IMG/VR virus record: IMGVR_UViG_2778261504_000013
Span: 1 to 15,428 of that record
DNA: 15,428 bases
From: a virus
Lineage: Duplodnaviria > Heunggongvirae > Uroviricota > Caudoviricetes
Direction: 5' to 3' (one strand)
The notes under the pieces are model-generated. The model ran no database searches, had not been told where the DNA came from, and was given only the letters and a program-made list of their open reading frames with translations. The translations under genes were made by a program, and so were the position numbers. Shown here piece after piece: positions 1 to 15,428 of the stretch. Within the stretch, counting starts at the first letter, position 1; each line of letters starts with the position of its first letter.

Positions 1-896
<896 letters not shown>

Positions 897-1539
897 CGAA
901 AGTATCTTAGCGGGCATGAAAATGGCAAATAACGGTCAAACATCGTGGCGTTGACACCGAAGCTGTAACTGAACCATTCTCTGATTTTGTCCATACGGTA
1001 CATGCTCTACCCATTCATTGAGGGGATTTGCTCTATTTAATTAGGAATAAGGTCGATTACTGATAGAACAAATCCAGGATACTGTGTTTAGTAATCAGAT
1101 TTGTTCGTGACCGATATGCACGGGCAAAACGGCGTGAGGTTGTTAGCGCAACCTCCTGCCACCCGCTTTCACGAAGGTCATGTGTAGAAGGCCGCAGCGT
1201 AACTATCACTGATGAATTCAGGACAGCCAGTGGCTACGGCTCAGTTTGGGTTGTGCTGTTGCTGGGCGGCGATGACGCCTGTACGCATTTGGTGATCCGG
1301 TTCTGCTTCCGGTATTCGCTTAATTCAGCACAACGATAAGAGCACTCAGTGCATTTAAGCCAAGCCCCATAAGGGAGAATGCTCTTACCTGTTGTGCAGA
1401 CAAAAAACCGCACGGCGGCGGGTTTAAGCTGTGTGGCGAAGTTACCCATCTTTACCAAGTATTCGGTAATAAAATAACTTGTGGTGTTCTCATTTTTATG
1501 CCGATAAAATAAACGGTCCACTTTCAAATGGAGCGATTC

Positions 1540-2460
1540 ATGATTTTTCTCAGAACTGAAAACGGCATCGAGAAACTTGAAAACTGGGAGAAAATTATAT
1601 CCAGACCAAACTTTGTCACCACTATAGACAAAGGAGTTCAACAACTTGAGGAGATAATTGGTTACTACAAATTTAAAGAAGAAATCCACTGTGGTCTAAC
1701 TGGTTGCAACCAACCACATCAAATGGGTTATATTGTAAAAACATCTAGTGGCATTGAAACCAACATCGGAAATAAATGTGGTAAAAACGAATTTGGTGTG
1801 GAATTTGGTGAAAACGTTCTTAGTTTCAATAAATTTATGCAACTCGAAACCAATCGGGAAATTATTAGCACCGCAAAAAGTAAATGTGAAGAGTGGCAAA
1901 AAAATATTGAAACGATACGAAATATCAAACCCACAATAGATTATCTATCTTCTACCATCGAAAATAGTAAAAATTCCAATTACTCCGGAAGACTTGGTGC
2001 TACAGAAATTCGTTTTTTGACCAAGAGCCAGACAGGCCTTGTAACCCTTTCTGAAGTGGAAACTGATAAGAATACCAAAACAATTCTGTTCGCAATGAAT
2101 GAACACATGCGCGAGTCTGGAGAGGCAATAAGTGAATTCTACATAGGAAAAGTATCATTTAGTCATGTTCTTTTACCAGAAAACAATCTTCGTGATTTTT
2201 TTGTTGCGCTCAAAGAAGATCTAAAAAAAATTCAGTGTATTGATCTACAAACAGCCCCAAGCCCAGAAATTTCTAATGTTGCCAAAATTGCCAGTTCAAT
2301 CGAAGAACGAATCAAGCGATTAAAAAAACTGAAACATGAAGCCAGTAAATTCCTAACTAAAAAAAATCTGCGTCCCATCGCAAACAAAATAAAATACTCA
2401 TCGACAGCGGATGAACTTGAATTCCATAATTTCGAACGCTTTTTAAAAGGGCTGAAATGA
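1540..2460 (+). CDS. Hypothetical protein, AT-rich orphan gene (about 306-310 aa), function unknown
   Basis: Long ORF of clearly lower GC than its flanks; GGAG lies 6 nt upstream of ATG 1540 (the alternative ATG 1528 has no SD); followed by a hairpin terminator. Contains a Cys/His cluster (HCGLTGCNQPHQ ... NKCGKNEFG). I recognise no family. Confidence 0.65.
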   Translation: MIFLRTENGIEKLENWEKIISRPNFVTTIDKGVQQLEEIIGYYKFKEEIHCGLTGCNQPHQMGYIVKTSSGIETNIGNKCGKNEFGVEFGENVLSFNKFMQLETNREIISTAKSKCEEWQKNIETIRNIKPTIDYLSSTIENSKNSNYSGRLGATEIRFLTKSQTGLVTLSEVETDKNTKTILFAMNEHMRESGEAISEFYIGKVSFSHVLLPENNLRDFFVALKEDLKKIQCIDLQTAPSPEISNVAKIASSIEERIKRLKKLKHEASKFLTKKNLRPIANKIKYSSTADELEFHNFERFLKGLK

Positions 2461-2461
2461 T

Positions 2462-2484
2462 AAAAGCCCCGAAAGGGGCTTCTA
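2462..2484. terminator. Bidirectional intrinsic terminator between the convergent orphan gene and Q
   Basis: Stem 2464-2470 (AAGCCCC) pairs with 2475-2481 (GGGGCTT) around a GAAA tetraloop; U-rich flank is better on the minus-strand side (TTTTA), so it may act as the terminator downstream of Q. Confidence 0.6.
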
Positions 2485-2574
2485 TCAAAATCATTTACGC
2501 ATTATTCCGCATGCTTAAAAGCATACATGACAGATTCGGACAAAATCAAGTGCAATGTCGCAAAAACCCTAAGC

Positions 2575-3405
2575 TTAGTTCACATCATCACCAAAACTTG
2601 TCACATTCTGAAAAGCAATATCGGCCTTACGCTCTTCCTGGTGGCAAATGTCAACCAGAGAATCAAGAAACGGCTTCCAATTACGCGTCCATGTCCTGAC
2701 ATGTAGCTCGGGTATCCGCTTCAGTACAACTTTATATACTGTGGTAGACGGTACCGTGGAAAATCCATTTCCGCTGCAACGTTCGCAGATTTTAAACACT
2801 GGCACACCACGCTCGCTTGTGGCTTTGCGGTCCAGTACCTCTCCCTTTCCACCACAACGACACCTGGCACTTATCACTCCCTTCCCTTTACATACATCGC
2901 AAACGACTGGTACAACTTCCGTTACCTCTGTCCATTTCTCCCAGTCTGACGGTCGAACAGCACGGGAGCGACTGGCCCAATATGGTGCTTTACCCCATGG
3001 GTATGAAACCTTACGAATGACCTGCTTACGGGGTGTTAGTCCGGTACCACTGCAACTATGGCATGTTACGCTGGTGTCTGCCGATCGGGAATACTCAGCA
3101 AAAGCAAACTGCGCCAGTACCAGCATACACCAGCCAAATTCACCACCAGCTGCTTTACGCACATTCTTCGGTGCAATTTCCATCGCGTGACGCGCCAGCG
3201 CCTGGACTGCCATCTGCTCATCAGTCTTGCTGATACCGGCCTTCCCGAAGAAGGCCGCCAAGCCAAACCGCTCACGATTGCTGGTGGTACCAATAGCCGC
3301 CATAACATCGGTGCCTGTAAGACGTTCCGGAGAGGTTCCTTTCACATCGTCGCCGATATACATTCCCTGAGGACTGAAGTATTTTAGCGATGCCTCAAGC
3401 TTCAT
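2575..3405 (-). CDS. Late antiterminator Q-like protein with four DnaJ-type CxxCxGxG zinc-finger repeats
   Basis: CHSCSGTG, CDVCKGKG, CRCGGKG and CERCSGNG repeats; last gene of the cro-side operon (the lambda Q position); start overlaps the upstream stop (TAATG). The family assignment is from memory of Q proteins of the Qin/phage 82 type and is not search-verified. Confidence 0.7.
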   Translation of the reverse strand: MKLEASLKYFSPQGMYIGDDVKGTSPERLTGTDVMAAIGTTSNRERFGLAAFFGKAGISKTDEQMAVQALARHAMEIAPKNVRKAAGGEFGWCMLVLAQFAFAEYSRSADTSVTCHSCSGTGLTPRKQVIRKVSYPWGKAPYWASRSRAVRPSDWEKWTEVTEVVPVVCDVCKGKGVISARCRCGGKGEVLDRKATSERGVPVFKICERCSGNGFSTVPSTTVYKVVLKRIPELHVRTWTRNWKPFLDSLVDICHQEERKADIAFQNVTSFGDDVN

Positions 3406-4262
3406 TATTCACACTCCCCAACCAGATTAAGAATAACCGCCGCGCCATTGTCTTTCATATATTCGCCCTTTCCGCTTGCCAAAAACCAACGACACACCTC
3501 CACGGCTTCAGCCCGTGTCACCGGTTTGATGGTCATCAGCAATTTTTCAAGGTAGCGCTCGCGGTCATATACCGATTCGTGATGCTCAGAGTAACCATAC
3601 TCATCGCCCTGTTCTTTAGACGCAGTGTGGCGAACACTGTAGAGCCAGTCCCAGTAAACAAACTCACGAACTACGTCTGACAATGTATGAGGCTCTGGCA
3701 GTACATCACGATAGCCATCAACATATGCACGACGCTGATCATCAATTTCATTCATACGGATGCCATCAATTCTGCCCGCTGTCTTCTCGGCTGCAGTCCA
3801 GCCCCAGAGATGATCGTCGATAAATTTCTGGGAAGACTGGATCACTCGCTCGGCTTCCACATCTTCGAGTGCTGCTTCATAGCTACCAAACGTAGCCCTG
3901 ACTGATGTTGCTTTTTTGATATTCTCCCGGGCGATCCTGATTGCCTGTGCCGGGTTATCCATGCCGATGGTACCGAAAGCAATCTGGAAAGGATCACCAC
4001 CATTCGCCAGCAGATAACGCGAATAGCGTTCCTGGGCCTCTTTTGGGGAAATTTTAATTTTCACCAGCGCAGCCTCAGCAGCATCCAGATGTGCGGGTTC
4101 GTTCAGACGGATAACCTCCAGCACCCAAAGATAAGCATCAGTCTGCTTATGCCCGGTGATTCTCCGTTGCTCTGGCAGGGGCTTGATGTTTGCGAGGGCG
4201 GAGCTGTACGCTGCCGTCGGGATGGTGAATAGTGCTTTATGTTCGTTGTTATCAGTACGCAT
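3405..4262 (-). CDS. Hypothetical phage protein (285 aa), in the nin-like position between primase and Q
   Basis: Translationally coupled at both ends (TAATG overlaps at 4260-4264 and 3403-3407); no recognisable motif. Confidence 0.65.
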   Translation of the reverse strand: MRTDNNEHKALFTIPTAAYSSALANIKPLPEQRRITGHKQTDAYLWVLEVIRLNEPAHLDAAEAALVKIKISPKEAQERYSRYLLANGGDPFQIAFGTIGMDNPAQAIRIARENIKKATSVRATFGSYEAALEDVEAERVIQSSQKFIDDHLWGWTAAEKTAGRIDGIRMNEIDDQRRAYVDGYRDVLPEPHTLSDVVREFVYWDWLYSVRHTASKEQGDEYGYSEHHESVYDRERYLEKLLMTIKPVTRAEAVEVCRWFLASGKGEYMKDNGAAVILNLVGECE

Positions 4263-5230
4263 TACGCAACCGCCTTTTTCTTATGGAAAACCAGCTCTCG
4301 AACCTGATCACCGTTCATGAGCATATTGTTGAAATCATCGTGATCCGGCCAGTACACGCTCACGCGCTGCAGGTCATTCTTTGCCATCAGATTGGCATGA
4401 GCACATTCGCAAGCCGCAGCCAGCCCGGTGGCGCTGTTCTCGTCACGGTCGGCAAAAATAATCAGGTGCAGAACACCAGCTGGTACGCGGAACTTTTTCA
4501 TAAAGCCGCTGTTAATGGTTGCCCAAGTGTTCACGTTATAAATCTGGTGCGCTGACAGCGCTGTTTCGATGCCTTCGGCGATACCCAGAGTGCTAGCAAC
4601 AGGAAACATGCGGATAGCTACAGAACGAGCGTGATCCAAATAGTTATCTTCCTGCAGGGATTTGAGGCGCTTTGCACTGCTACCGATATCTGCTTTTTTA
4701 TCACCATCAAGCAGAGTCTGGTGCAGATAGCACAACTCCCCTTTATCGTCCGTAGCAAGTGAATAAAGAGACTGGAACACACTCCCGTTGTGTCTCTGCC
4801 TGGCATTGAACCGGATCGCCTCAGCAGGAAGACTGAATATTCCACGAGAATTAAGATACGCTGCGCCGGATGTACCACGCAGTGCCTCCAGTTTTGAAAA
4901 CTTGCTCAATACCCGTTTGCGTAAGCTGGTGGCGCTGCTGGTTACCGGGATTTTAACCCGTTGGTAATCATTACCGATCAGGCGGTCTATTTCGGTACAA
5001 ATCTCGTTAAATGGCTTCGCCTGTGTCAGGGTGACAAGTTTCATACCATCGCCACTACCACATACACAGATCCACGTTCCTGCACCGTCGCGGTCATCAA
5101 TTCGGAACTTGCCACGTGCACCGCATACCGGGCATTCACCCTTGAAGTGATTTTTTCCTGTTATCGGCGGCAAGCCGAAGTGCTCTAATATTTCAGGCCA
5201 GCGGCCTTTCGCTGCAGCTGCTGTTTTCAT
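4262..5230 (-). CDS. DNA primase with N-terminal zinc-binding domain and Toprim domain
   Basis: CPVCG ... WICVCGSG zinc-binding motif; Toprim signatures IAEGIETALS and IIFADRDEN (DxD); coupled to the helicase gene. Confidence 0.8.
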   Translation of the reverse strand: MKTAAAAKGRWPEILEHFGLPPITGKNHFKGECPVCGARGKFRIDDRDGAGTWICVCGSGDGMKLVTLTQAKPFNEICTEIDRLIGNDYQRVKIPVTSSATSLRKRVLSKFSKLEALRGTSGAAYLNSRGIFSLPAEAIRFNARQRHNGSVFQSLYSLATDDKGELCYLHQTLLDGDKKADIGSSAKRLKSLQEDNYLDHARSVAIRMFPVASTLGIAEGIETALSAHQIYNVNTWATINSGFMKKFRVPAGVLHLIIFADRDENSATGLAAACECAHANLMAKNDLQRVSVYWPDHDDFNNMLMNGDQVRELVFHKKKAVA

Positions 5231-5231
5231 C

Positions 5232-6890
5232 TTACTGACTCAAACTGTTTATATTTTTCTGGAGTTGTTGCTTTGCTTGCATGATGCGCCAAGCCTCAGT
5301 GCCTATTGGCATCTCGCTTCGCTCACCTCGTTCCTGAGACAGAGGAATCGTTGCCTGCAATTTTTCTATAGTTCTCTGCGTCCGCTGACGGCCTTTGGCA
5401 AACCGAATCAGCTTGTGTTTGATGTAGTTACTTACTTCTGGGCTTATTTCCATCGGGAAACTGCTCAACCCATCAGGCCATTCACCGAATTTCTCCCTGA
5501 AAGTGTGAGCACACCATCCATCACTGACTGGACGCCCCAGCGAAGCACGCTGGCGCTGATAAAATTTGATCTGACTCCACCAGGACTGTTTCTCTGTCTT
5601 CGTCGACTGATGCTGATTTTTACCCAGCTTATTAAGTTTGCGGCTAGTGTCAGTATCAACATCTTCACCTCGCAGCGGCTTGTGTCCACATTTAGGGCAA
5701 ACATAGACGCCAGCTGGCTTCATGTAGTGGCATTGAGGGCATTCATGTGGCAGTTTTTCGGCCCGTTCCTCAACTGCGCGGCGCGCGCTTTCCTCCATGC
5801 CGTCAGACTTACCGGGAAGATCGTCGTACTCGATTGAATCCGGATAACCCAAACGGTGCACGGTGCCGCTGTGATCGAAGATAAGGCAGGACTCTTTACC
5901 CGGTGCGGTGCGCAGCCCACGCCCGAGTGCCTGCAACCAGCGAATTTCGCTTTTTGTTGGCCTGGCGTAGATGATGCAACGAACGTCACTATCAAAGCCG
6001 GCCACCAGAACGCCCACACTAACGATGATTTTCGTTGCACCAGTTTCAAAGCGGTGAATGATGGTCTGGCGCTCATCTACCGGAGTGTCTGCGGTCATTA
6101 CCTCAGCGTTAACACCTGCGAGGTTAAACTGGATTGTCAGGTAATTGGCGTGGGCTACGTTGACGCAGAAAGCGATGGTAGGTAGATCCCGACCATTCTC
6201 CAGCCAGTTCTGTACGATGTCGCCCACCAGCGTAGAGCCGCACATGATTTCAGCCAGCTGTGTTTCGTTGTAATCGCGGCCGTACTCAAGCGAAGATGTG
6301 GTTTTAACACCTTTCAGATCCGGCTTAGTTGGCGCGTAAAATTCGTATTTACTCAGATCGCCACGCTGGATTAACTCGCCGATGGTGGTCGGCTTAATCA
6401 GTCGGTCATAGTATTTGCCCAGGAACGGAGAAAACGGAGTACCCGACAGGCCAATCACCTTTACGCCTTTGCCGCGCAGACGTTCGATATCCTTCAGGAT
6501 GCGTTTTTTACGCAGGTGCGCTTCGTCGATAATCAGCAGATCGATATTTTCAGGAAAAACACGACGAATAAGCGTGTCAGTGCTGGCAATCTGAATTTTC
6601 CGGTCCGGATCGTAGTTCGGGTGATCCGCCCAGATATAACCGATTTCATCTCCAGGTAAACCATACTGCACGAACCGATTAGCCGTCTGACCAATCAGGA
6701 TGGTGTACGGAACACAGAACAGAACACGCATACCACGGCTGACAAAACCAGCAACGATGAAGGCTGCCAGACCCGTTTTACCGCTACCTGTTGGCGAGTA
6801 AACCATGAAGGTGTCGTTTGCCTTCCAGTCACGGCGCAACATGTTTAGCGCTCGCTCCTGTGCAAAATTCGGCGTGATTGTCAGCTGCAT
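5232..6890 (-). CDS. Superfamily 2 (DEAH-type) DNA helicase, replication module
   Basis: Walker A SPTGSGKTG, DEAH box IIDEAH, motif III LSGTPF, motif VI QALGRGLR; C-terminal zinc ribbon CPQCH ... CPKCGH. Confidence 0.85.
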   Translation of the reverse strand: MQLTITPNFAQERALNMLRRDWKANDTFMVYSPTGSGKTGLAAFIVAGFVSRGMRVLFCVPYTILIGQTANRFVQYGLPGDEIGYIWADHPNYDPDRKIQIASTDTLIRRVFPENIDLLIIDEAHLRKKRILKDIERLRGKGVKVIGLSGTPFSPFLGKYYDRLIKPTTIGELIQRGDLSKYEFYAPTKPDLKGVKTTSSLEYGRDYNETQLAEIMCGSTLVGDIVQNWLENGRDLPTIAFCVNVAHANYLTIQFNLAGVNAEVMTADTPVDERQTIIHRFETGATKIIVSVGVLVAGFDSDVRCIIYARPTKSEIRWLQALGRGLRTAPGKESCLIFDHSGTVHRLGYPDSIEYDDLPGKSDGMEESARRAVEERAEKLPHECPQCHYMKPAGVYVCPKCGHKPLRGEDVDTDTSRKLNKLGKNQHQSTKTEKQSWWSQIKFYQRQRASLGRPVSDGWCAHTFREKFGEWPDGLSSFPMEISPEVSNYIKHKLIRFAKGRQRTQRTIEKLQATIPLSQERGERSEMPIGTEAWRIMQAKQQLQKNINSLSQ

Positions 6891-6940
6891 TGTGCTGTCC
6901 CCGCAGTGATGAGATAATAATTTTGTGATGTGGTTTTCAT
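6881..6940 (-). CDS. Possible 19-aa upstream ORF (MKTTSQNYYLITAGTAQCS) coupled to the helicase start
   Basis: Strong SD GAGGAGGAA 5 nt upstream of ATG 6940; its stop overlaps helicase codons 2-3, while the helicase's own SD is weak. Too short to call on coding signal alone. Confidence 0.3.
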   Translation of the reverse strand: MKTTSQNYYLITAGTAQCS

Positions 6941-7001
6941 GGATTCCTCCTCACATGGCTGGTGGTCTCCCCAAAGGCTGCCAGCCCCTTTCCGAATCAA
7001 C

Positions 7002-7370
7002 TCACTTAAATTTCGTCGCACGAATAACGTCAATTCCGTTCTCGCTATATCGAAGAGGGTGCTTACCATCCCTGAGCAGGACAAAACCTGACATCCCCTC
7101 AGGTAGCTGAGCCAGCTTCATCAACGAACGGTTGCGGGGAGACTTCTTATCGACCTCAATGGCACACTGCTGGCCGTCTGATGATGTAACCAAGCAATCA
7201 ATAAACCCTTTACGACCACCGCTAATGCTGATGCTGAAATTGCGTTGCAGGTGGTATCCCTGAGACTTGATTTTTTTCTGCATCACATAATCGAAAACGA
7301 CTTTGTCATCGGAGCGGATGAATTGCTCTTCCAGGAGAGCGATTAAATTTTGCTTCAGGTCTTCACTCAT
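7002..7370 (-). CDS. Small protein with possible PD-(D/E)xK / VRR-NUC-like nuclease core, upstream of the helicase
   Basis: Segment GRKGFIDCLVTSSDGQQCAIEVDKKS ... Q ... GFVLL resembles the VRR-NUC core; the track's start at 7406 is TTG, so ATG 7370 is preferred. Family assignment is low confidence. Confidence 0.5.
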   Translation of the reverse strand: MSEDLKQNLIALLEEQFIRSDDKVVFDYVMQKKIKSQGYHLQRNFSISISGGRKGFIDCLVTSSDGQQCAIEVDKKSPRNRSLMKLAQLPEGMSGFVLLRDGKHPLRYSENGIDVIRATKFK

Positions 7371-7619
7371 ACTTTTTATCCATCTTGTACTAGCTTTCTG
7401 GTACAATCGTTTTTTCAGGGGTATCCCCCTTTAGATCGAGATCTACCTAACCTATGTACCCGTCTGTTGGAAAAGCCTGTTCCAGTGCTTCGCACTAACA
7501 CACGGGCACTCCTCCCCCTCCCCTCCTCTCACTGAATTTTGCATGTACTCCTTAGCTAGTACACAAAATGCAATGAGATTTGGGATTCAGCCACCGGACA
7601 CCTTTAAGCCCGGTACCAA

Positions 7620-7913
7620 TCAGGAGCGCGATTGCGTTCCTGCCAGGGGCGGCTGAGTTGTATACCCCTGTAAAGCTCTGCCCTGATTTCTCACGAACAG
7701 GCGGAGCCTTGTGTTTGCTTCATGCCTTGCTCTGTTCTCCTTACGGAATGAAACAGGCTCAGCGTCAAAAGTGATTTCGTATACCTCCGCATATTTCAGG
7801 GCGACCTTCCGTCTCAGTGACGGAGGCAGCCCCTGTAACTGCTGCTGAATCCACTCTTTGTCTGCCTGGCAGTACCTAGATGGCATCTCTGTCTGAACGT
7901 AATTCTGGGACAT
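7620..7913 (-). CDS. Hypothetical early protein (97 aa) immediately downstream of cro
   Basis: ORF with GGAGGTGA upstream of ATG 7913; overlaps the cro 3' end by 38 nt; in the cII-like position but with no resemblance to lambda CII. Confidence 0.5.
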   Translation of the reverse strand: MSQNYVQTEMPSRYCQADKEWIQQQLQGLPPSLRRKVALKYAEVYEITFDAEPVSFRKENRARHEANTRLRLFVRNQGRALQGYTTQPPLAGTQSRS

Positions 7914-8163
7914 ACAAGCCCTTCACCTCCCCCGTGCGCGCTAAGCTTGGATGTGGAAAAAGCTCTGGTAGGTCTGGACGAAATTCATACGCTTGGATCT
8001 TTCCGTCTACAGCTGCAACCAATAACGGCACAAATTCTGGTGAAATCTTGTTCTTGCAGTTCAACCAATCGCAGACTGTTGACTGGGCCTTTCCGCATCG
8101 CTTGGCTAAGGCTTGCTGACTTCCAAGAATCTCAATAGCTTTCTCTATGGCTTTATGTTTCAT
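7876..8163 (-). CDS. cro: Cro-like HTH repressor (Cro/YdaS type)
   Basis: 95 aa, HTH SQQALAKRCGKAQSTVCDWLN; divergent from the cI-like gene; AGGAGA SD upstream of ATG 8163 (the track's upstream extension is less likely). Confidence 0.7.
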   Translation of the reverse strand: MKHKAIEKAIEILGSQQALAKRCGKAQSTVCDWLNCKNKISPEFVPLLVAAVDGKIQAYEFRPDLPELFPHPSLARTGEVKGLYVPELRSDRDAI

Positions 8164-8185
8164 AATCGCATCTCCTATTGAACGC

Positions 8186-8214
8186 ATAATAACAACAGGA
8201 AAAGCGATATTCAA
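8186..8214 (-). promoter_or_regulatory. Candidate PR-like sigma70 promoter for cro (TTGAAT-17-TATTAT on the minus strand)
   Basis: Read on the minus strand: -35 TTGAAT (8209-8214), 17-nt spacer, -10 TATTAT (8186-8191), about 25 nt upstream of the cro start. Confidence 0.5.
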
Positions 8215-8230
8215 CGTTAAACCTAGAATA

Positions 8231-8250
8231 TTTATCGGAAAGCCGATAAA
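8231..8250. promoter_or_regulatory. Operator: perfect 20-bp palindrome TTTATCGGAAAGCCGATAAA in the cro-cI intergenic region
   Basis: 8+4+8 inverted repeat seen directly; its 14-bp core ATCGGAAAGCCGAT matches two sites at the promoter downstream of cI (11/14 to the 9028-9041 site). Confidence 0.55.
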
Positions 8251-8282
8251 CTAGCCAAGATAGAGAGGGGAGGAAAATCGCA

Positions 8283-8975
8283 ATGACATTTTCAGAACGA
8301 CTTGATTTAGCTATGCGCAACGCAAAATTTACGCAAGGTAGGCTGGCCAAAGAAGTGGGTATGGCTCAGTCCAGTGTTAATCAACTACTTAACAAAGCCA
8401 ACGGTTCCAGAAAAACAGTCGAAATAGCAAAAGTTTTGGGCGTTAACCCGGAATGGCTCGCATCGGGTGTTGGCCCAATGGAAATCGTGACCTCTGCAGA
8501 CTCACACCAAATACGTAACATTTCTGAAGATTGGGTTACTGATTCGTATGTCGTGGATGTTTTAGACATCAGATATAGTTGCGGACCTGGTAGTTATAAC
8601 TCTGATTTTCCTGACATTGTCAGATCTATAGCTATAGAACCAGGATACGCATCAAGAGTTTTTGGCGGCAGACCAGCATCAGCAATCAAAGCAATAAACG
8701 CCCACGGCGACAGTATGAAAGGCACAATAGACCCTGAAGACTTGGTATTTGTAGATGTATCAGTTCGCACATTTAATGGTGATGGTATATACGCCTTTAC
8801 ATACTCTGGAACATCGCACATCAAAAGACTTCAAAAAATCAAAGATACTCTAACGGTGATATCTGACAACCCAGCTTACAAGGATTGGGCTATCGAACCG
8901 GAAGACTTCGAACAACTTCACATTGACGGAAAAGTAATTGTCAGTTGGCCTATGACACTACACCGTTTTGCATAA
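8283..8975 (+). CDS. cI: CI-type prophage repressor: N-terminal HTH plus C-terminal S24 (LexA-like) autopeptidase
   Basis: HTH QGRLAKEVGMAQSSVNQL; S24 catalytic Ser in AHGDSMKG and Lys in HIKRL; possible Cys-Gly cleavage site (YSCGPG); strong SD GGGGAGGA; divergent from cro. Confidence 0.85.
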   Translation: MTFSERLDLAMRNAKFTQGRLAKEVGMAQSSVNQLLNKANGSRKTVEIAKVLGVNPEWLASGVGPMEIVTSADSHQIRNISEDWVTDSYVVDVLDIRYSCGPGSYNSDFPDIVRSIAIEPGYASRVFGGRPASAIKAINAHGDSMKGTIDPEDLVFVDVSVRTFNGDGIYAFTYSGTSHIKRLQKIKDTLTVISDNPAYKDWAIEPEDFEQLHIDGKVIVSWPMTLHRFA

Positions 8976-8993
8976 GCAAAAATCATTTAACCC

Positions 8994-9018
8994 GCCCACT
9001 CTTAAGTGGGCTTTTTTT
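8994..9018 (+). terminator. Intrinsic terminator after cI
   Basis: GCCCACT-CTTA-AGTGGGC perfect stem-loop (8994-9011) followed by T7 (9012-9018). Confidence 0.7.
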
Positions 9019-9027
9019 GGAAGAAAA

Positions 9028-9069
9028 ATCGATAAACCGATTGACAGGTGAAATCGGTAAACCTATTAT
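9028..9069 (+). promoter_or_regulatory. PL-like early promoter (TTGACA-17-TATTAT) with two overlapping operator copies
   Basis: -35 TTGACA 9041-9046, 17-nt spacer, -10 TATTAT 9064-9069; operator-like 14-mers ATCGATAAACCGAT (9028-9041, abutting the -35) and ATCGGTAAACCTAT (9053-9066, over the spacer and -10). Confidence 0.6.
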
Positions 9070-9109
9070 CTTGACATAGGTATCGAACTCACCAAAGCAA
9101 TTATAGAGG

Positions 9110-9529
9110 ATGAGAAAAATGTCATCGTATATGGGGTTACCAACAAATCAGCACGATGCTCTTGAGAATATTCAGCTCTTAGTAGGGGCTGGTGCACTAC
9201 TGTATAGCAGCAATAACCCTGAGTTAATTGAACTTGCCAGCTCCATCCTGGCTGTAACTCAAAAATATAGCCTCACCGCGTCACGTTTATGCAAACAAAA
9301 TTTAGCTATTAATTCCCAGAATCGGATTCGCACCCAACGCGAAGCCTGCGGCTTAACAACCGCCGAACTCGCCAGGCTGCTCGATCTCGATGAAGAAATC
9401 ATCATCCAGTGGGAGAGCGGAGAGTATGAACCAACTATCAGTATGCTTATCCCTCTGGCTAATGTTTTTGGCTGTGACCCAATGTGGTTATTGACTGGTG
9501 CTTATAAACAAAATCAGGAGGAAGCATAA
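9110..9529 (+). CDS. XRE-family HTH protein (C-terminal HTH), first gene of the PL-like operon
   Basis: C-terminal HTH TQREACGLTTAELARLLDLDEEIIIQWESGEYEPT; the start may be ATG 9119, which has better SD spacing; N-terminal domain unknown. Confidence 0.65.
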   Translation: MRKMSSYMGLPTNQHDALENIQLLVGAGALLYSSNNPELIELASSILAVTQKYSLTASRLCKQNLAINSQNRIRTQREACGLTTAELARLLDLDEEIIIQWESGEYEPTISMLIPLANVFGCDPMWLLTGAYKQNQEEA

Positions 9530-9530
9530 G

Positions 9531-9722
9531 ATGAAAATGTTCAAAGGCCTTACCAACGAACCGGAGACAGTTTTTCATCACATTGCCGTACTGCTTGAAG
9601 CGGGGTTAATCATTTCGGCTTCCGGTGATGAAGAATGTGATGAACTTTCGGATGATATCTTTCTACTGGCACAACAATACGCCAGAAGCGCATGCGATGC
9701 ATTTAAGGAGCAAAGAACATGA
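9531..9722 (+). CDS. Small acidic hypothetical protein (63 aa)
   Basis: AGGAGG SD; acidic stretch SGDEECDELSDD; stop overlaps the next start (ATGA). Confidence 0.5.
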   Translation: MKMFKGLTNEPETVFHHIAVLLEAGLIISASGDEECDELSDDIFLLAQQYARSACDAFKEQRT

Positions 9723-9910
9723 AAACTCCATTAAATATTCTTGAGGAAGTGGCAGCACAAATAAAAGAGAATACATCAATGCTTGAATTTATATTTAAGA
9801 ATTCGCCCGACCAAGGAGAGACAGACGATTATTTATGCTGTCTCATTCGCTCCATGAATAAGACCTGTGAAATGGCTTACGAGTATATAGAAACACTACG
9901 CAACGAATAA
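9719..9910 (+). CDS. Small acidic hypothetical protein (63 aa)
   Basis: AAGGAG SD 8 nt upstream; translationally coupled to the preceding ORF. Confidence 0.5.
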   Translation: MKTPLNILEEVAAQIKENTSMLEFIFKNSPDQGETDDYLCCLIRSMNKTCEMAYEYIETLRNE

Positions 9911-10094
9911 AGAACTCTCAATAAAAAATCACACATAAAAACATGACGGCCTCTGGTCGGGGGTTTTCACAACCAGAAAATAATGGTGATGCATGAAAAA
10001 CAGAAGTGCTTATAAAACCGCATTATTAATGGCTAATGCAGGATACTGGTCAGTTGCAATACTGTTTCTCAGGAAAGCATACGGGAAATAACAA

Positions 10095-10454
10095 ATGACA
10101 CATGAACCCATTAATACATATCGTCGCCGTATAGCTGTTGCGGCACTCCATCGAATAAAACGTAAAACAGGTGTTAATCTGCTTATTGTTGACCTTCCTG
10201 ATGGGAACATTACGACCATAGAAATAACTGAACAGTTTATAAACCAGTTGCTGTTACGCTTCGAAGGTATTACCCGTGGCGAATTGGGCCGGGTGGAGGG
10301 TGAAACCGAAATCCACACTGCATACCAGAATGCTATCGGGATTAATCAACATACTGAATACCTGACTGAAACCGGAAAGTTAATTATAGACAACCTTTTT
10401 CAAGAGGTTATTGATTACGCGAAAGAAAAATATATCAGCGGAGGAATTAACTGA
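10095..10454 (+). CDS. Hypothetical protein (119 aa)
   Basis: ORF in the operon after a 184-bp gap; weak SD; stop overlaps the next start (TGATG). Confidence 0.55.
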   Translation: MTHEPINTYRRRIAVAALHRIKRKTGVNLLIVDLPDGNITTIEITEQFINQLLLRFEGITRGELGRVEGETEIHTAYQNAIGINQHTEYLTETGKLIIDNLFQEVIDYAKEKYISGGIN

Positions 10455-10669
10455 TGGCTAATTTATCCCCTGTATCTGTTGTGCACGAAAAAGTGCAGAT
10501 CGTTATGACAATTGAAAATGGCCAAGTCACAGGTGTCTGCAAAGTCCGCGATGGCGAGCTGATTGCCAGCATGGATACATTCATACGGCTGGCAGAAAGA
10601 GCGGGGTATCAGATAACAGCACCTGCTCAGGAGGAAACCGGTGGCATTAACAGCAACACGCATTCCTGA
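10454..10669 (+). CDS. Hypothetical small protein (71 aa), possible partner of the downstream toxin-like ORF
   Basis: Coupled to the upstream gene and overlaps the downstream ORF by 29 nt, the usual antitoxin-toxin geometry; no recognisable motif. Confidence 0.45.
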   Translation: MANLSPVSVVHEKVQIVMTIENGQVTGVCKVRDGELIASMDTFIRLAERAGYQITAPAQEETGGINSNTHS

Positions 10670-10862
10670 GTGGGTGCACCTGCAGGCGGTCCGTGTTCTC
10701 CGCCAGTTCAGAGCCAGACGAATTCATCCCTGTCGTATGCACGGCTCCGGAAACCTGAGTCTGAGGGTTAATCGCCGCTGGCGGCTGCTGTCCCGAGACG
10801 GCGGCCAGAACTGGGAAGTAATGAGCCATGAACGATACAGCAAAGTTAAGGACCGGAAATGA
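10641..10862 (+). CDS. Candidate RelE/HigB-superfamily toxin-like protein (73 aa, GTG start)
   Basis: AGGAGG 7 nt upstream of GTG 10641; C-terminal segment LSLRVNRRWRLLSRDGGQNWEVMSHERY resembles the RelE/HigB core (LRV ... EVMTHKEY). Shorter than typical family members, so it may be degenerate. Confidence 0.4.
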   Translation: MALTATRIPEWVHLQAVRVLRQFRARRIHPCRMHGSGNLSLRVNRRWRLLSRDGGQNWEVMSHERYSKVKDRK

Positions 10863-10892
10863 ACAATAAATCTTCAAACCAAAAGGAGAGTA

Positions 10893-11474
10893 TTGATGAT
10901 TAATTCAACCATTACCCCTGAACCTACATTAACAGGCATCCGTTTTGGTAATCGAATTATTGGCTATTCAACTGCGGTTCGCCAGATCGACAACGGTAAC
11001 TATGACAAACGAATTCCGGACGGGCTCGATCTGATAGCTTGCATTATGGAAGGGATTGAAAGCGGCTGGTTTATGCCGTGTATTGAAAAACAAATCATCC
11101 TATGGCGCTGGCTTGTTGTCGCCGTGTTCATTGCTGAGGAGCAGGAGAAGAACGGGACTGTCGATGTTCAGAATGACAAGGGCGGCGTAGATACAGCCGT
11201 TGTATACACGGGAAAACCCGGTTCAATCAGCATTTATCCGTGGTCTGAGCGCTTCGCGCTCGCTAACCATATCGAGGCGGGCGCAATTGAAAAATACGGG
11301 CCTGACGTTGGTCAGCAGATGGCGCTGCGTATGTATCAGGACATGGTTGTAACTGACGAGAAATGCGGATTCAGGCTGTCAGCGATGGGCCGGGAGGGAC
11401 TCAACATACTACATGACAGCTTCATTGAACTGATTCAGAAAGACGGTATGCCAGACATGCCGGTTATGCACTGA
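10893..11474 (+). CDS. Hypothetical protein (193 aa)
   Basis: AAGGAG SD 7 nt upstream; no recognisable domain. Confidence 0.6.
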   Translation: MMINSTITPEPTLTGIRFGNRIIGYSTAVRQIDNGNYDKRIPDGLDLIACIMEGIESGWFMPCIEKQIILWRWLVVAVFIAEEQEKNGTVDVQNDKGGVDTAVVYTGKPGSISIYPWSERFALANHIEAGAIEKYGPDVGQQMALRMYQDMVVTDEKCGFRLSAMGREGLNILHDSFIELIQKDGMPDMPVMH

Positions 11475-11485
11475 GGTGGACGAAA

Positions 11486-12235
11486 ATGAACATAGTAACG
11501 ATCAATAACAAACAGCTTCCGGCAGTCGAATATCGCGGTCAGCGTGTTGTGACGCTGGCAATGATTGATGAAGTCCACCAGCGCCCGGAAGGTACCGCCC
11601 GTGCTGCGTTTAACCGCAACCGTTCTCACTTTATCAAAGGGGTGGATTTTCTTGAAATGACTGCGGACGTAATACGTACGGAGTCACTTTCTGATGCCTT
11701 TGCCGCGCGAACTGCCAAAGGGATCATTCTTTTCGAGTCTGGTTACCTGATGTTGACGAAGCCTTTTAACGATGCTCTTGCATGGCAGGTTCAGCGCGAA
11801 CTGGTTAACAGCTATTTCCGAACTCACGCGCCGCTGACGGAAATGGAGATGATCGCTGCAATGGCCGCCGATGCCGTTCGCCAGCAGAAGCGCCTGAGTC
11901 ATGTTGAAGAGAAGATCGAAACGGTCACCAAAGCTGTGGAGAACATCAAACGCGGCACAATGCGCACCGGATATGTCGGTTACCGCCAGGTGGTAGCCAA
12001 AAGCGGAATGAGTGACGCCAAGTGTCGGAATCTGGTCAACGCCTACCACATCCCTACCGACACGCACGAATTTATGACTCCGGACGGTCTGTTGTCTCGC
12101 AGGGCTGTCGTCGAGCTTGAGACATTTATGGCGGCGTTCCACCAAATGATGTCAGAGGCTGAACCACGCGGCACACGCTGGTATCACCCGAAGATGGGGC
12201 TTTTTCAGGTAATCGGATGGGAGGATAAAGCATGA
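11486..12235 (+). CDS. ORF6N-domain protein (antirepressor / Rha-like regulator family)
   Basis: N-terminal LAMIDEVHQRPEGTARAAFNRNRSHFIKGVDFLEMT matches the ORF6N pattern (..kRN..rF..g.dF..lt); GAGGTGGA SD; stop overlaps the next start (ATGA). Confidence 0.65.
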   Translation: MNIVTINNKQLPAVEYRGQRVVTLAMIDEVHQRPEGTARAAFNRNRSHFIKGVDFLEMTADVIRTESLSDAFAARTAKGIILFESGYLMLTKPFNDALAWQVQRELVNSYFRTHAPLTEMEMIAAMAADAVRQQKRLSHVEEKIETVTKAVENIKRGTMRTGYVGYRQVVAKSGMSDAKCRNLVNAYHIPTDTHEFMTPDGLLSRRAVVELETFMAAFHQMMSEAEPRGTRWYHPKMGLFQVIGWEDKA

Positions 12236-12801
12236 TCATCCAGTCAAAACTTATTCGCGCCGCTCTGGTGTGCGCTGCTAAAAACGACGTTCGTTATTAC
12301 CTGAACGGTCTTCACATCACGCCAAAACATATTGAGGCAACCAATGGTTTCGTAGCACTGCGCATGACTCACGGCATCCGGACGAAGAAAAACATCATTG
12401 TCCAGTTCGAAGGTGGCGTCCCGGCCAAAGCCGAAACGACAGAGCTGATTTTTAGTAAAGAGCCGATCGCTGTTCATCGCGACCAGTTTCAGCGCCGGCT
12501 GTCCATTACCGGCATTAAATTGGTGGACGGTTGTTTTCCGGATTTGGAACGCATCATTCCGAAAAAATTTGACCTCTGTACACACCCGGTGATCCAGGCG
12601 GGTTACCTGAGTTATCCAGAGAAGATGTTTGGTCGTGAGCGTAAATTTATTCCCGTCCAGTTACGTTCCTCCGGTGACGGGCAAGCGGTCAGAATTCAGT
12701 TTGATTCCATCATCAACTCAATGTATGGCAATCCTGAATTTGTTGTGATGCCTTGTCGTGATCATGGCGATTTCAATGTGGCTCAGGAGCATCCGGAATG
12801 A
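12232..12801 (+). CDS. Truncated DNA polymerase III beta-clamp (DnaN) homologue, domain II plus partial domain III
   Basis: Three collinear matches to E. coli DnaN as I recall it: NDVRYYLNGL vs QDVRYYLNGM; IKLVDGCFPDLERIIPKKFD vs SKLVDGRFPDYRRVLPKNPD; EFVVMPCRD vs AYVVMPMRL. Only 189 aa, lacking domain I. Confidence 0.7.
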   Translation: MIIQSKLIRAALVCAAKNDVRYYLNGLHITPKHIEATNGFVALRMTHGIRTKKNIIVQFEGGVPAKAETTELIFSKEPIAVHRDQFQRRLSITGIKLVDGCFPDLERIIPKKFDLCTHPVIQAGYLSYPEKMFGRERKFIPVQLRSSGDGQAVRIQFDSIINSMYGNPEFVVMPCRDHGDFNVAQEHPE

Positions 12802-12836
12802 AAATCGAATACCAGGACGCCGCAGGAGGTGAATCA

Positions 12837-12920
12837 ATGAGCTGGCCTGATGCAATCGTAACTCTGGGGGTGGTATTCGCAGTAGCGTTTGTTGTGTTCT
12901 CGATTTGTCGATGGGGATAA
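12837..12920 (+). CDS. Small single-pass membrane peptide (27 aa, MSWPDAIVTLGVVFAVAFVVFSICRWG)
   Basis: Strong SD AGGAGGTGA 6 nt upstream of ATG; hydrophobic core typical of a transmembrane helix; below the size cutoff of the ORF track. Confidence 0.4.
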   Translation: MSWPDAIVTLGVVFAVAFVVFSICRWG

Positions 12921-12924
12921 CCAC

Positions 12925-13092
12925 ATGTTCGCTTTGATTCAACGCGGTCAGATATACACGGACAGAGCTGGATACCCCGTGGTGATTACTCGCATCACTG
13001 AGCACTCAGTGTTCTTTCGACGGATGGACGGACGATCCGGGCGGGTACGCATTGGTGAGTTAAACTGCCTGTTCGAACATATTGACCACTAG
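12925..13092 (+). CDS. Small hypothetical protein (55 aa)
   Basis: ATG 12925 with a GGGGA upstream; internal start within the track ORF 12889-13092. Confidence 0.4.
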   Translation: MFALIQRGQIYTDRAGYPVVITRITEHSVFFRRMDGRSGRVRIGELNCLFEHIDH

Positions 13093-13170
13093 GAGTACCG
13101 CAAAATTCTCGCGGACACTGAGCAGGAAAAGCACCTGAAAAAATTACGAGCCATAAAAAGGAAGTAAAGA

Positions 13171-13317
13171 ATGAATAAAGCATTTGAACGATGGGTCCAC
13201 CAGCGTTACGGCAATCGCTATGACCTGACGCGAGATGTTGACGGCTTCTACTGTCGTGAAGTTGTGAAGCGAATGTTTGAAGTGTGGTGCCACTGCCGTG
13301 GGCTGAGTGTTGTGTGA
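13171..13317 (+). CDS. Small Cys-containing hypothetical protein (48 aa)
   Basis: AAGGAAG SD; ORF MNKAFERWVHQRYGNRYDLTRDVDGFYCREVVKRMFEVWCHCRGLSVV; sits just upstream of xis. Confidence 0.4.
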   Translation: MNKAFERWVHQRYGNRYDLTRDVDGFYCREVVKRMFEVWCHCRGLSVV

Positions 13318-13325
13318 GGTGATGT

Positions 13326-13535
13326 ATGGGGCTGGATTGCGTGCCTATATCAACCTACTGCCGCGACGCGGGAGAAACGGTTGATGCCGTTAACAAACGG
13401 ATACAAAGAGGAATATGGAAAGAAGGGGTTCATGTATTAAAAGTCGATGGAGTTAAAGAACGCTGGGTCGACTTAATAGAGGTTTCAAAATGGGCAAGAA
13501 AGAACAAGGATTATTATCTCTGCCAAGAGGAGTAA
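13326..13535 (+). CDS. xis: Excisionase-like protein
   Basis: 69-aa ORF immediately upstream of and overlapping int by 46 nt, as in lambda xis-int; GAGGTGA SD; small basic winged-helix-like sequence. Confidence 0.6.
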   Translation: MGLDCVPISTYCRDAGETVDAVNKRIQRGIWKEGVHVLKVDGVKERWVDLIEVSKWARKNKDYYLCQEE

Positions 13536-14668
13536 CTATTCGTAAGCATAAAACTGCTTCAACACTAGTTATCACTTTCACATATAAAGGGGTTCTTTGC
13601 AGGGAGCCCCTGTCTCGGCTTGAGGCAAATACACGTGGTATTAAATATGCTGAGCGCCTGCTAGGGGAGATACAAAATCAGATCGCCAGTGGAACGTTTG
13701 AATATGCGAAATATTTCCCCAGTTCCAAAAAACTGGAGTTATTCGGTATAGTAAAGAAAACCAAAAATATTAAGTCCTATCTTGATGAATACCTGAAAAT
13801 TTGCATGAACCGCAATCTGTCGCCGTCAACCATTGGCGGTTACGAAAAATGTATATCAGCACTATCAGAGCTACATAAACTACATGTAACAGAATTGACG
13901 CCTGCGGTACTAAAAAATTGGATAGCCAGCCGAAAAACTAAGCTGAAAACAATCAGGAATAACCTGTCATTTCTGCGCAGCGCCATTGATGAGGCTGTAA
14001 CTGATGGCCTGTTGACTATTAACCCGGTAACTCTTGTCAGCGCCAGCCGGTATCACGTGGTCGACAGTAAACCGAACGCCGACGATTACGAAGTTGATCC
14101 GTTTGCGCCTGCGGAAACCAGTGCCATATATCAGCACTGCAAGTATCAGGAATGGCAGAATCTGTTCCGCTTCGCCTTCAATACAGGGCTACGCAGCTCT
14201 GAGCTATGCGCATTACGTTGGACCGATATCGACTTTATAGGTAATACAGCGCACATACAGGCGGCCAGTGTCGTAGGGGTACTTAAAGGCACCAAGACAA
14301 AAGCCGGTACCCGTAAGGTGGAGCTGAACAGTGAGGCGCTGGCGGCCCTGCAGGCGCAGAAGCAATACACCTTTATGAAAAGTGAGTTCATATTCAGCGA
14401 TCCGAAAACGGGAGATCCCTGGACGAACGCCGACGCTATCCGTAAAAAAGCATGGGTGCCGACCCTAAAAAAAGCTGGTGTGCGCTACCGTAACCCGTAC
14501 CAGACGCGCCACACATTCGCCACCAGACACATTAGCCAGGGTGTAAACCTTTTCTGGCTTGCCGGGCAGATGGGGCATAAGGGGCCGGAAATGCTGTTCC
14601 GCAATTACGGTAAATACCTGGCTGAATACGACGGGAAAACCGCAATGGAAGCTGGAATGAAGAAGTGA
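13490..14668 (+). CDS. int: Tyrosine recombinase (phage integrase)
   Basis: Catalytic signature TGLRSSEL (Arg), TRHTFATRH (His-x-x-Arg), HKGPEMLFRNYGKY (His and Tyr nucleophile); N-terminal arm-binding-like region; last gene of the operon. Confidence 0.9.
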   Translation: MGKKEQGLLSLPRGVTIRKHKTASTLVITFTYKGVLCREPLSRLEANTRGIKYAERLLGEIQNQIASGTFEYAKYFPSSKKLELFGIVKKTKNIKSYLDEYLKICMNRNLSPSTIGGYEKCISALSELHKLHVTELTPAVLKNWIASRKTKLKTIRNNLSFLRSAIDEAVTDGLLTINPVTLVSASRYHVVDSKPNADDYEVDPFAPAETSAIYQHCKYQEWQNLFRFAFNTGLRSSELCALRWTDIDFIGNTAHIQAASVVGVLKGTKTKAGTRKVELNSEALAALQAQKQYTFMKSEFIFSDPKTGDPWTNADAIRKKAWVPTLKKAGVRYRNPYQTRHTFATRHISQGVNLFWLAGQMGHKGPEMLFRNYGKYLAEYDGKTAMEAGMKK

Positions 14669-14674
14669 TTTGAA

Positions 14675-14706
14675 GAAAAAACCCGGCAAATGCCGGGTCT
14701 TTTTGA
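14675..14706. terminator. Bidirectional intrinsic terminator between int and the convergent 196-aa gene
   Basis: ACCCGGCA / TGCCGGGT inverted repeat (14681-14698) flanked by an A-run upstream and T5 downstream. Confidence 0.7.
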
Positions 14707-14709
14707 TGG

Positions 14710-15300
14710 TTATTCTGTCGCGCCACCTATCGAAACATAATCATGAAATTGATCGTCAATGAGTCGGTCCTTACAGATAACATGTACAATGTGACGACAA
14801 CAGTTTTCATCATCATACGCACGACCCCAGCGAACAATCTCATCTACAGACAGATCATTCGCACTCCATGGCAAAGTACCTGAAACACCACGCGCACCTG
14901 GACCAAGTATGTCCATAAATTTCTTCGTGCGTGAATTGTAGATCCGTACCTCGGCAATTCGAATGATGCTACTAGCCCAAAGAGCACCACCGGCAATACT
15001 TTGAATGTTATCGCAGATGAGAAACTCATGCTTTCGCGCAAGCATTTTATAGATCTCACGCGCCAAACCTGCTGATTGGAAATCCTGTGCGATAACAGCG
15101 CTTTTCACTTGCTTTCCGGTCATCATCTGACCGTTCTCTTCGATAAAATTAAAGTCGTTGAACTGTATACGACCTATTCTTATCGTTTTGTTATCGTCTA
15201 CCATATCAAGACCCAAGAGGGTATTGACCAGATCCTGCATTGGAACCTTCGAATCAAGAAGGTCACTGCCATAGTCTAAAAAAAGTCGTCGGTGGAACAT
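14710..15300 (-). CDS. Hypothetical protein (196 aa), AT-rich, convergent with int; function unknown
   Basis: Complete ORF (in-frame stop 11 codons upstream of the ATG), no strong SD; no motif I can assign; lies at the att-proximal edge of the prophage or in flanking DNA. Confidence 0.6.
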   Translation of the reverse strand: MFHRRLFLDYGSDLLDSKVPMQDLVNTLLGLDMVDDNKTIRIGRIQFNDFNFIEENGQMMTGKQVKSAVIAQDFQSAGLAREIYKMLARKHEFLICDNIQSIAGGALWASSIIRIAEVRIYNSRTKKFMDILGPGARGVSGTLPWSANDLSVDEIVRWGRAYDDENCCRHIVHVICKDRLIDDQFHDYVSIGGATE

Positions 15301-15428
15301 CCCAGTTGATACACATCCAAGTAGTACTGAAACTCACCAGAACTGACAATGGGTGATGCTGCCAACTTACTGATTTAGTGTATGATGGTGTTTTTGAGGT
15401 GCTCCAGTGGCTTCTGTTTCTATCAGCT

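Follow-up and report, generated by a model that had tools for sequence, protein, structure and literature searches.

A widespread, unannotated 27-codon gene for a predicted single-span membrane peptide in Escherichia and Shigella phages and prophages

Introduction

Does an open reading frame of only 27 codons, lying shortly before the excisionase and integrase genes of a tailed phage, represent a real gene, and if so, what might its product do? The question is raised by a stretch of viral DNA of 15,428 nucleotides (Duplodnaviria; Heunggongvirae; Uroviricota; Caudoviricetes; IMG/VR record IMGVR_UViG_2778261504_000013, positions 1 to 15,428), which in its full length is referred to here as the window. 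A preliminary description, made from the window sequence, proposed that the frame is a real gene for a hydrophobic single-helix peptide, likened its position to that of Kil-type host-killing peptides and pointed to a toxic or exclusion role. Here we assess the open reading frame (ORF), its relatives in public collections, the contexts in which they occur and the functions that may be considered for the product.

The Open Reading Frame and Its Start Signals

The two features from which the argument starts are:

12837 to 12920, plus strand: small core gene of 27 codons and a TAA stop, encoding MSWPDAIVTLGVVFAVAFVVFSICRWG, the unit that is conserved throughout the family
12824 to 12829, plus strand: Shine-Dalgarno sequence AGGAGG, with a 7-nt spacer to the ATG at 12837 and a TGA directly after AGGAGG

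Read from the sequence and from a list of ORFs of at least 20 aa, the frame begins with ATG at 12837-12839 and ends with TAA at 12918-12920, so that the coordinates and the 27-aa length first given for it are correct. The strong, well-spaced Shine-Dalgarno sequence that the preliminary description had reported is likewise present, and its core is kept in nearly all of the upstream sequences of homologues. AGGAGG followed by a start codon 5-9 nt downstream occurs only four times in the whole window, and two of the other three sites are the start, or likely start, of longer ORFs. One observation concerns annotation elsewhere in the window: an ORF of 74 aa with a GTG start (9498-9722) contains an internal ATG at 9531 after AGGAGG, which is the likelier start and gives 63 aa. 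That the 27-codon ORF is more than a chance occurrence follows from its conservation among homologues and not from the window alone.

The region was also considered as a possible RNA element or terminator, an identity that was ruled out in view of the missing fold signal and Rfam match. Shuffled sequences fold at least as well as the RNA around the ORF (z=+1.36), Rfam gave no match anywhere in the window, and the two terminator-like matches between 12000 and 13600 are weak and no more than shuffles give. Within the same interval, no promoter-like site was found on either strand.

Gene Neighborhood

The annotated or recognizable genes closest to the ORF are as follows:

12232 to 12801, plus strand: upstream gene for a 189-aa, beta-clamp-domain-like protein, its stop overlapping an ATG at 12798
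12925 to 13092, plus strand: downstream DUF4222 gene of 55 aa, beginning 4 nt past the peptide stop and ending at TAG 13090-13092
13326 to 13535, plus strand: excisionase gene, closing the same-strand gene string together with the integrase gene
13490 to 14668, plus strand: integrase gene, the end of the same-strand gene string

On the 5' side, the same strand carries genes for a CI-like repressor and a CII-like regulator, together with several small ORFs, a gene for an anti-repressor-like ORF6N protein, and the beta-clamp-like gene. The order on the 3' side is the DUF4222 gene, a 48-aa ORF, excisionase and integrase, with the peptide ORF about 400 nt from xis, and the helicase, primase and Q genes lie on the opposite strand. 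This flanking gene order puts the peptide gene close to the distal end of a lambdoid prophage's early-left operon, which would comprise the same-strand string from the CI-like repressor to xis-int. As no promoter of its own was found, the gene would probably be expressed after infection or induction and be silent in a repressed lysogen.

Two details of the neighbors deserve mention. PHROGs places the 189-aa protein in phrog_3007, "RusA-like Holliday junction resolvase" (E=1e-64), Pfam and RefSeq give it a DNA polymerase III beta-clamp-like domain, and the phrog_3007 label may be wrong. The excisionase and integrase ORFs overlap by 46 nt (13490-13535), and the same overlap is annotated by RefSeq in relatives.

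Homologues and Selection

A tblastn search against 50,697 phage records returned 70 records that matched at least 80% of the peptide length at 55-96% identity, and in the first loci retrieved from this search the ORF had exactly 27 codons every time. Public collections were then scanned at the DNA level with a pattern that fixed 21 bases (M1, W3, P4, D/E5, A6, G11, A15, R25, and W26), leaving 18 codons free and 9 fixed; it demanded neither a stop codon nor an open frame. A stop nevertheless falls exactly after codon 27 in 134 of the 135 pattern matches, the single exception being a chance match in Pseudomonas. These 134 homologues comprise 54 distinct DNA sequences encoding 31 peptides. Despite a pS of 0.42, none of the 54 sequences has an internal stop in the sense frame and there are no frameshifts; both alternative sense frames contain stops in 53-54 of the 54.

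The substitutions point in the same direction. Over the 18 pattern-free codons, dN/dS in the sense frame is 0.36, compared with 0.59-2.15 in four other frames, and a neighbor-joining tree requires 75 synonymous vs. 76 non-synonymous changes where 26% synonymous changes are expected (p=6e-10), while the same test gives p>0.2 in the four other frames. Most replacements exchange one hydrophobic residue for another. One antisense frame, the third positions of which coincide with those of the sense frame, equals the sense frame in synonymous excess and is open across 81 nt. This excess is an expected artefact of the coincident third positions, and the frame was discounted only on its lack of a start-to-stop ORF of at least 20 aa in the window. 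Two antisense ORFs (12834-12926 and 12718-13005, minus strand) were considered as genes and rejected, with stops in 16-38 of the 54 sequences and dN/dS of about 1-2.

Because the pattern fixed 9 codons, W3, P4, A6, G11, A15, R25, and W26 are invariant partly by construction; matches obtained without the pattern agree with these residues, except for P0010, which has S4 and G5. The initiation signals are also conserved, even where the upstream genes are unrelated. A 4-nt Shine-Dalgarno core is found at -16 to -7 in 36 of the 38 distinct 25-mers upstream of the homologues, and the start codon overlaps the stop of an upstream gene in 118 of 129 loci, as ATGA in 104 and as TGATG in 14, with the arrangement of the window in a further 10. 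Although the pattern placed no condition on codon 2, the first base of this codon is A in each of the 54 sequences (encoding T, S, N, or I, with Ser always AGC), which is what constraint on the overlapping TGA would produce.

The claim that this is a real gene is thus strongly backed by the conservation of its length, by selection and by the initiation signals across homologues. The analysis shows the ORF with its signals, that it is conserved and under purifying selection, that it has spread as a module, and that a helix is predicted for its product. On this footing we consider it probable that we are dealing with a real, translated gene for a single-span membrane peptide, translation and membrane insertion being the inferred parts of that reading.

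Spread and Mosaic Contexts

The gene is carried by at least 994 of 5426 complete Escherichia coli genomes, or roughly one in five, with up to five copies per genome and 116 places on plasmids. Carriers include P1-like plasmids, the lytic phage Av-05, a prophage in the outbreak lineage O104:H4 and 933W, the Stx2 phage of O157:H7. When one genome per species was searched (185,579 species), the gene was found only in Escherichia and Shigella, barring two tiny contigs. These matches outside the enteric bacteria, in Xanthomonas pisi (L129, 431-bp contig) and Acinetobacter idrijaensis (L132, 369-bp contig), are likely to be assembly contamination; the X. pisi peptide is that of 933W. As far as these searches see, the family therefore appears confined to phages and prophages of Escherichia and Shigella. 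In the cryptic lambdoid prophages of K-12 (Rac, e14, DLP12, and Qin) only noise of 20 bits or less was detected, and the absence of the gene from them may explain why small-protein screens centered on K-12 would have missed it.

The same 27-codon gene is present in virulent coliphages, namely Av-05 (L006 2001-2084, Vequintavirinae), vB_EcoM_TH18 and relatives, and it is therefore not limited to temperate phages. In these virulent phages it is coupled through ATGA to an upstream gene that is labeled EaA in related records.

The surroundings of the gene are highly variable. Among the sampled loci there are 46 different 40-mers upstream and 44 different 45-mers downstream, and these were sorted into five or more kinds on either side. 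Upstream genes are of the Ea22/DUF551 type (most loci), the 933W p77 type, the M8 type or the beta-clamp-like type, and downstream features include DUF4222, a hok/mok leader, hairpins resembling intrinsic terminators, and two other genes. In all 41 loci with peptide type A or C the downstream feature is DUF4222, and type A alone occurs in four upstream contexts. Since the peptide type tracks the downstream and not the upstream feature, exchange is taken to happen in the linker that holds the Shine-Dalgarno sequence and ATGA. The tight linkage to DUF4222 in two sequence types might be the mark of a two-gene module.

The linker itself, CAGGAGGTGAATCAATGA (window 12819-12840, with homologous junctions in L002-L126), joins the end of a DUF551/Ea22-type gene, the Shine-Dalgarno sequence and the start of the peptide. 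A comparison of these loci suggests that recombination has recurred at this junction within the mosaic "ea" region of lambdoid phages, and the peptide gene would then mark the site. In the 933W-type Stx phages (L004 2001-2450, L136, and L137), the peptide gene ends about 90 nt before sokW/hokW, with no annotated gene in between. A further mosaic is seen in PP818812.1 (L007, "Actinobacillus phage vB_Apl-pPE4"), in which the 36 nt upstream are those of E. coli phage ArgO145 and the first 30 nt downstream are those of 933W, followed by an annotated gene of the Hok/Gef family; from these matches, the stated host Actinobacillus looks questionable.

Such exchange raises the possibility that the ORF is not a functional gene at all and owes its presence only to a conserved recombination linker or to recent common descent. 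Upstream contexts do switch at this junction, many copies are near-identical, and databases contain N-terminal fusions of 40 to 87 aa and three C-terminal extensions of 29-53 aa. However, the 54 distinct sequences have diverged considerably at synonymous sites and still show neither stop nor frameshift, they carry the synonymous excess and the mainly hydrophobic-for-hydrophobic replacements described above, and their length stays at exactly 27 codons regardless of what comes next, be it a gene, a hok locus or a terminator. We therefore regard this explanation as very improbable.

The gene instead finds its place among the interchangeable accessory genes of the lambdoid exo-xis or "ea" region, which include ea22, ea8.5, and orf60a/61/63/73 and are non-essential (PMC4195576). 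It shares their neighborhood, their mosaic distribution and their interchangeability, and its usual upstream neighbor is an Ea22/DUF551-type gene. None of the exo-xis ORFs treated in that paper corresponds to the peptide, however, and none of the products it names is called a membrane protein, the word "transmembrane" being absent from its text.

Predicted Product

The preliminary description had proposed a single hydrophobic helix, and the predictions agree with it. Residues 6-24 have a mean Kyte-Doolittle hydropathy of 2.76, and AlphaFold2 gives one helix over residues 3-26 (16-39 when the query is a 40-aa form with an upstream extension, in which pLDDT is 89-94 across the last 20 residues). 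Trp3 and Trp26 are 23 residues apart, a spacing that is about the thickness of a bilayer, and the peptide would form one transmembrane helix with these two residues at the two membrane interfaces. Under the positive-inside rule, the acidic N-terminus (Asp/Glu5) would be periplasmic and Arg25 cytoplasmic, giving an N-out, C-in topology.

Gly11, Ala15, and mostly Ser22, all small residues, recur along one side of the helix at positions i, i+4, and i+11, although two of these three positions were fixed by the scan pattern. They could be suggested as a packing face of the helix, and we offer this as a suggestion only. Conservation is distributed around the helix (conservation moment 0.20), and the idea of a packing face is weak because conservation is not confined to one side.

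Possible Functions

In kind only, the peptide most resembles the single-span inner-membrane modulators of E. coli that have 50 aa or fewer, such as AcrZ, MgrB, MgtS, CydX, and KdpF. It appears to share with them its size class, one hydrophobic helix with short termini, interfacial Trp residues and a strong Shine-Dalgarno sequence, and genes of this class are, like this one, regularly missed by gene callers. It differs from them in that no sequence similarity was found and in that its gene is carried by phages within an early operon, where it is coupled to the gene before it. On this likeness a course of events can be proposed. The gene would be switched on with its operon upon infection or induction and remain off in the repressed lysogen; translation would start from its own strong Shine-Dalgarno sequence and in most phages would also be coupled through ATGA or TGATG; and the inserted helix would pack on itself or on a larger host or phage protein of the inner membrane and alter its activity, much as the bacterial membrane proteins of 50 residues or fewer do. 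Its role would be an accessory one during lytic growth. The partner-binding step is the likeliest mode of action that we see, but taken alone it is a tentative proposal by analogy that we hold to be possible though rather unlikely.

A more specific version, to which we assign a lower likelihood still, is that the peptide is a dedicated phage effector that binds one particular host inner-membrane protein and re-tunes it in lytic growth. Candidate targets could be a transporter or channel that phages use to bring in their DNA, or the FtsH/HflKC protease system, which governs the lysis-lysogeny decision. If true, this would amount to an unrecognized function common to Shiga-toxin phages, P1-like plasmids and some lytic coliphages. 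Natural variants with and without the upstream partner gene exist, and with its short length and defined start the gene is experimentally tractable.

The preliminary description took another direction and likened the locus to the site of Kil-type genes. This analogy fails on position, kinship and predicted location in the cell. The peptide ORF is about 400 nt from xis, whereas in the Rac prophage kilR adjoins sieB and is about 4.5 kb from xisR, with ydaE, racC, recE, recT, ralR, and rcbA in between, and in lambda kil lies between cIII and gam. Kil proteins are FtsZ inhibitors of 47-73 aa that block formation of the FtsZ ring and cause filamentation, and, to our knowledge, they have not been described as transmembrane peptides; this peptide matches no Pfam family, Kil included. 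What it has in common with lambda Kil and Rac KilR is that all would be small accessory products of the lambdoid early-left operon, but the Kil genes are near cIII or sieB and far from xis.

A host-killing or membrane-damaging toxin, either Kil-like or of type I (Hok, Ibs, ShoB, and DinQ), must still be weighed. The peptide is short and very hydrophobic, as are Hok/Gef proteins (among them hokW of 933W), Ibs, ShoB, and DinQ, and many short hydrophobic peptides are toxic when over-produced. Toxins also occur in its neighborhood, with the gene directly upstream of hokW/sokW in 933W-type phages. Nonetheless, hok adjacency is only one among several interchangeable downstream contexts, the peptide has no homology to the Kil or Hok families, and its C-terminal tail has only one positive charge. 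The regulation also differs. Type I toxins are tightly repressed, whereas this gene lacks an antisense RNA, a mok-like leader, an occluded Shine-Dalgarno sequence and a promoter of its own among the features searched for, and no translation-blocking fold was found. Its open mRNA, with a consensus Shine-Dalgarno sequence and coupling to the upstream gene, is the opposite of type I toxin silencing, and its translation looks constitutive within the operon. Given also that Kil genes do not adjoin xis, we think a toxin improbable.

A superinfection-exclusion or defense factor, acting on an inner-membrane component that other phages need for DNA entry, seems to us no likelier than a toxin. Small membrane exclusion proteins are known in phages, including HK97 gp15, T4 Imm, and DicB via ManYZ, and an interchangeable accessory module for a membrane peptide, shared by many temperate phages and a lytic phage, would fit such a role. 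On the other hand, PADLOC gave no match, no sequence link to known exclusion proteins was found in Pfam or PHROG, and with no promoter of its own found the gene would probably be off in a repressed lysogen, the very state in which exclusion by the prophage would count most. A toxic or exclusion role, as put forward in the preliminary description, is thus not supported by any finding made here.

Annotation and Database Status

The 27-codon form is without annotation in every record inspected (933W, Stx2 II, Min27, ArgO145, Av-05, vB_Apl-pPE4, PhiR12_1, E. coli M8, O104:H4, and the P1-like plasmid pC5104). In O104:H4 and pC5104 the ORF occupies a gap of 82 to 84 nt between annotated genes. The description of the gene as unannotated therefore stands for the 27-codon family in these records but not for the arrangement in the window, where RefSeq calls a longer, 40-aa frame in close relatives and names its product a hypothetical protein (L001, WP_021501359.1; L135, WP_001467557.1).

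Protein databases give a similar picture. A collection of 5.8 billion proteins, queried with the 40-aa form, contained only three 40-aa clusters, and the source names available for two of these are all E. coli. An exhaustive HMMER search of 1.84 billion representatives matched nine proteins; the seven that were inspected are N- or C-terminally extended versions plus one 29-aa variant, and the five with a source name are all E. coli "hypothetical protein." Overall, the databases hold fusions extended at the N-terminus to 40 to 87 aa and three forms extended at the C-terminus (29-53 aa). The peptide is represented there only where a chance in-frame extension, as in this window, lifts the ORF above the size limits of gene callers or, once, as the 29-aa variant.

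Profile searches of Pfam, PHROG, and NCBIfam with the 27-aa or the 40-aa form returned only sub-threshold noise, PADLOC assigned the peptide to none of its families, and a PDB profile search gave no match. No paper containing the peptide was found by a literature search with its sequence strings; it is not present in the Pro-SMP finder paper, and no peptide string was found in the accessible part of the supplements to a Ribo-seq study of intergenic small genes in O157:H7 Sakai. The literature searched contained no ribosome-profiling or proteomic record of it. The new element is accordingly a widespread and systematically unannotated gene, of a kind already known among the small membrane peptides of phages and bacteria, and it cleanly illustrates how a conserved micro-protein of phages escapes standard pipelines.

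The Upstream Leader and the 40-Amino-Acid Form

The 40-aa frame called by RefSeq brings us to the features that are particular to the copy in the window:

12798 to 12836, plus strand: in-frame leader of 13 codons, MKIEYQDAAGGES, made up of 7 codons of a 74-aa gene and the remnant of a DUF551 tail
12784 to 12789, plus strand: second Shine-Dalgarno-like site CAGGAG, read from the sequence, 8 nt 5' of the ATG at 12798
12819 to 12836, plus strand: 3'-terminal remnant of a gene of the DUF551/Ea22 type, GCCGCAGGAGGTGAATCA, identified by alignment, elsewhere read as ..PPQEVNQ and a stop and here as AAGGES

The frame of the peptide is open on the 5' side as far as the ATG at 12798, which gives the 40-aa form, MKIEYQDAAGGES plus the 27-aa core. 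This ATG overlaps the TGA (12799-12801) of the preceding 189-aa gene as ATGA, and with its own CAGGAG the 40-aa form can be read just as well as the 27-aa form. The alignment shows two breakpoints in the leader region. The window follows E. coli M8 as far as ATGAAAATCGAATACCAGGAC, which makes up the opening 7 codons of a 74-aa gene that M8 carries intact, and from GCCGCAGGAGGTGAATCAATG on it matches phage PhiR12_1, in which the corresponding DNA is the end of an Ea22/DUF551-type gene in another frame (..PPQEVNQ and a stop); the match to the PhiR12 phage starts at window position 12818. As judged from this alignment, the leader is a deletion scar that fell in frame by chance, and it stands outside the family proper. 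An identical leader also precedes a core that differs from that of the window at about 13 of 27 residues (P0003), and AlphaFold2 models the leader without secondary structure (pLDDT 55-67).

Which form is made from this copy? As the ATG at 12798 is a bona fide start with translational coupling and a Shine-Dalgarno sequence, and as the deletion joined the peptide gene in frame with the beginning of another one, this phage probably makes a 40-aa isoform, alongside or instead of the 27-aa form. The stronger proposal is that the RefSeq 40-aa protein (12798-12920) is the real product of this window and that the start at 12837 is little used, being covered by elongating ribosomes. In its favor, ATG 12798 lies 8 nt after CAGGAG, shares ATGA with the end of the 189-aa gene and serves as the native start of the 74-aa gene in E. 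coli M8, and the 40-aa form is present in protein databases from 427 contigs. Against it, the 13 residues are a fusion scar of 7 foreign codons and an out-of-frame DUF551 tail, modeled as disordered and missing from all other contexts, with window-type loci making up only 10 of 129. The leader is moreover unchanged before the divergent core of P0003, and the internal Shine-Dalgarno sequence and ATG are the conserved signals. We consider this proposal quite conceivable but somewhat doubtful; the two forms can also coexist and are not mutually exclusive.

The gene on the other side of the peptide has also been altered. In relatives (among them PhiR12_1), CAG stands in place of the TAG at 13090-13092 and the protein has 80 aa, in a frame that corresponds to the window up to 13167; the TAG thus truncates the DUF4222 protein of the window just past the Pfam domain. 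With its upstream partner gene deleted and a nonsense codon in the DUF4222 gene, this copy may sit in a decaying prophage.
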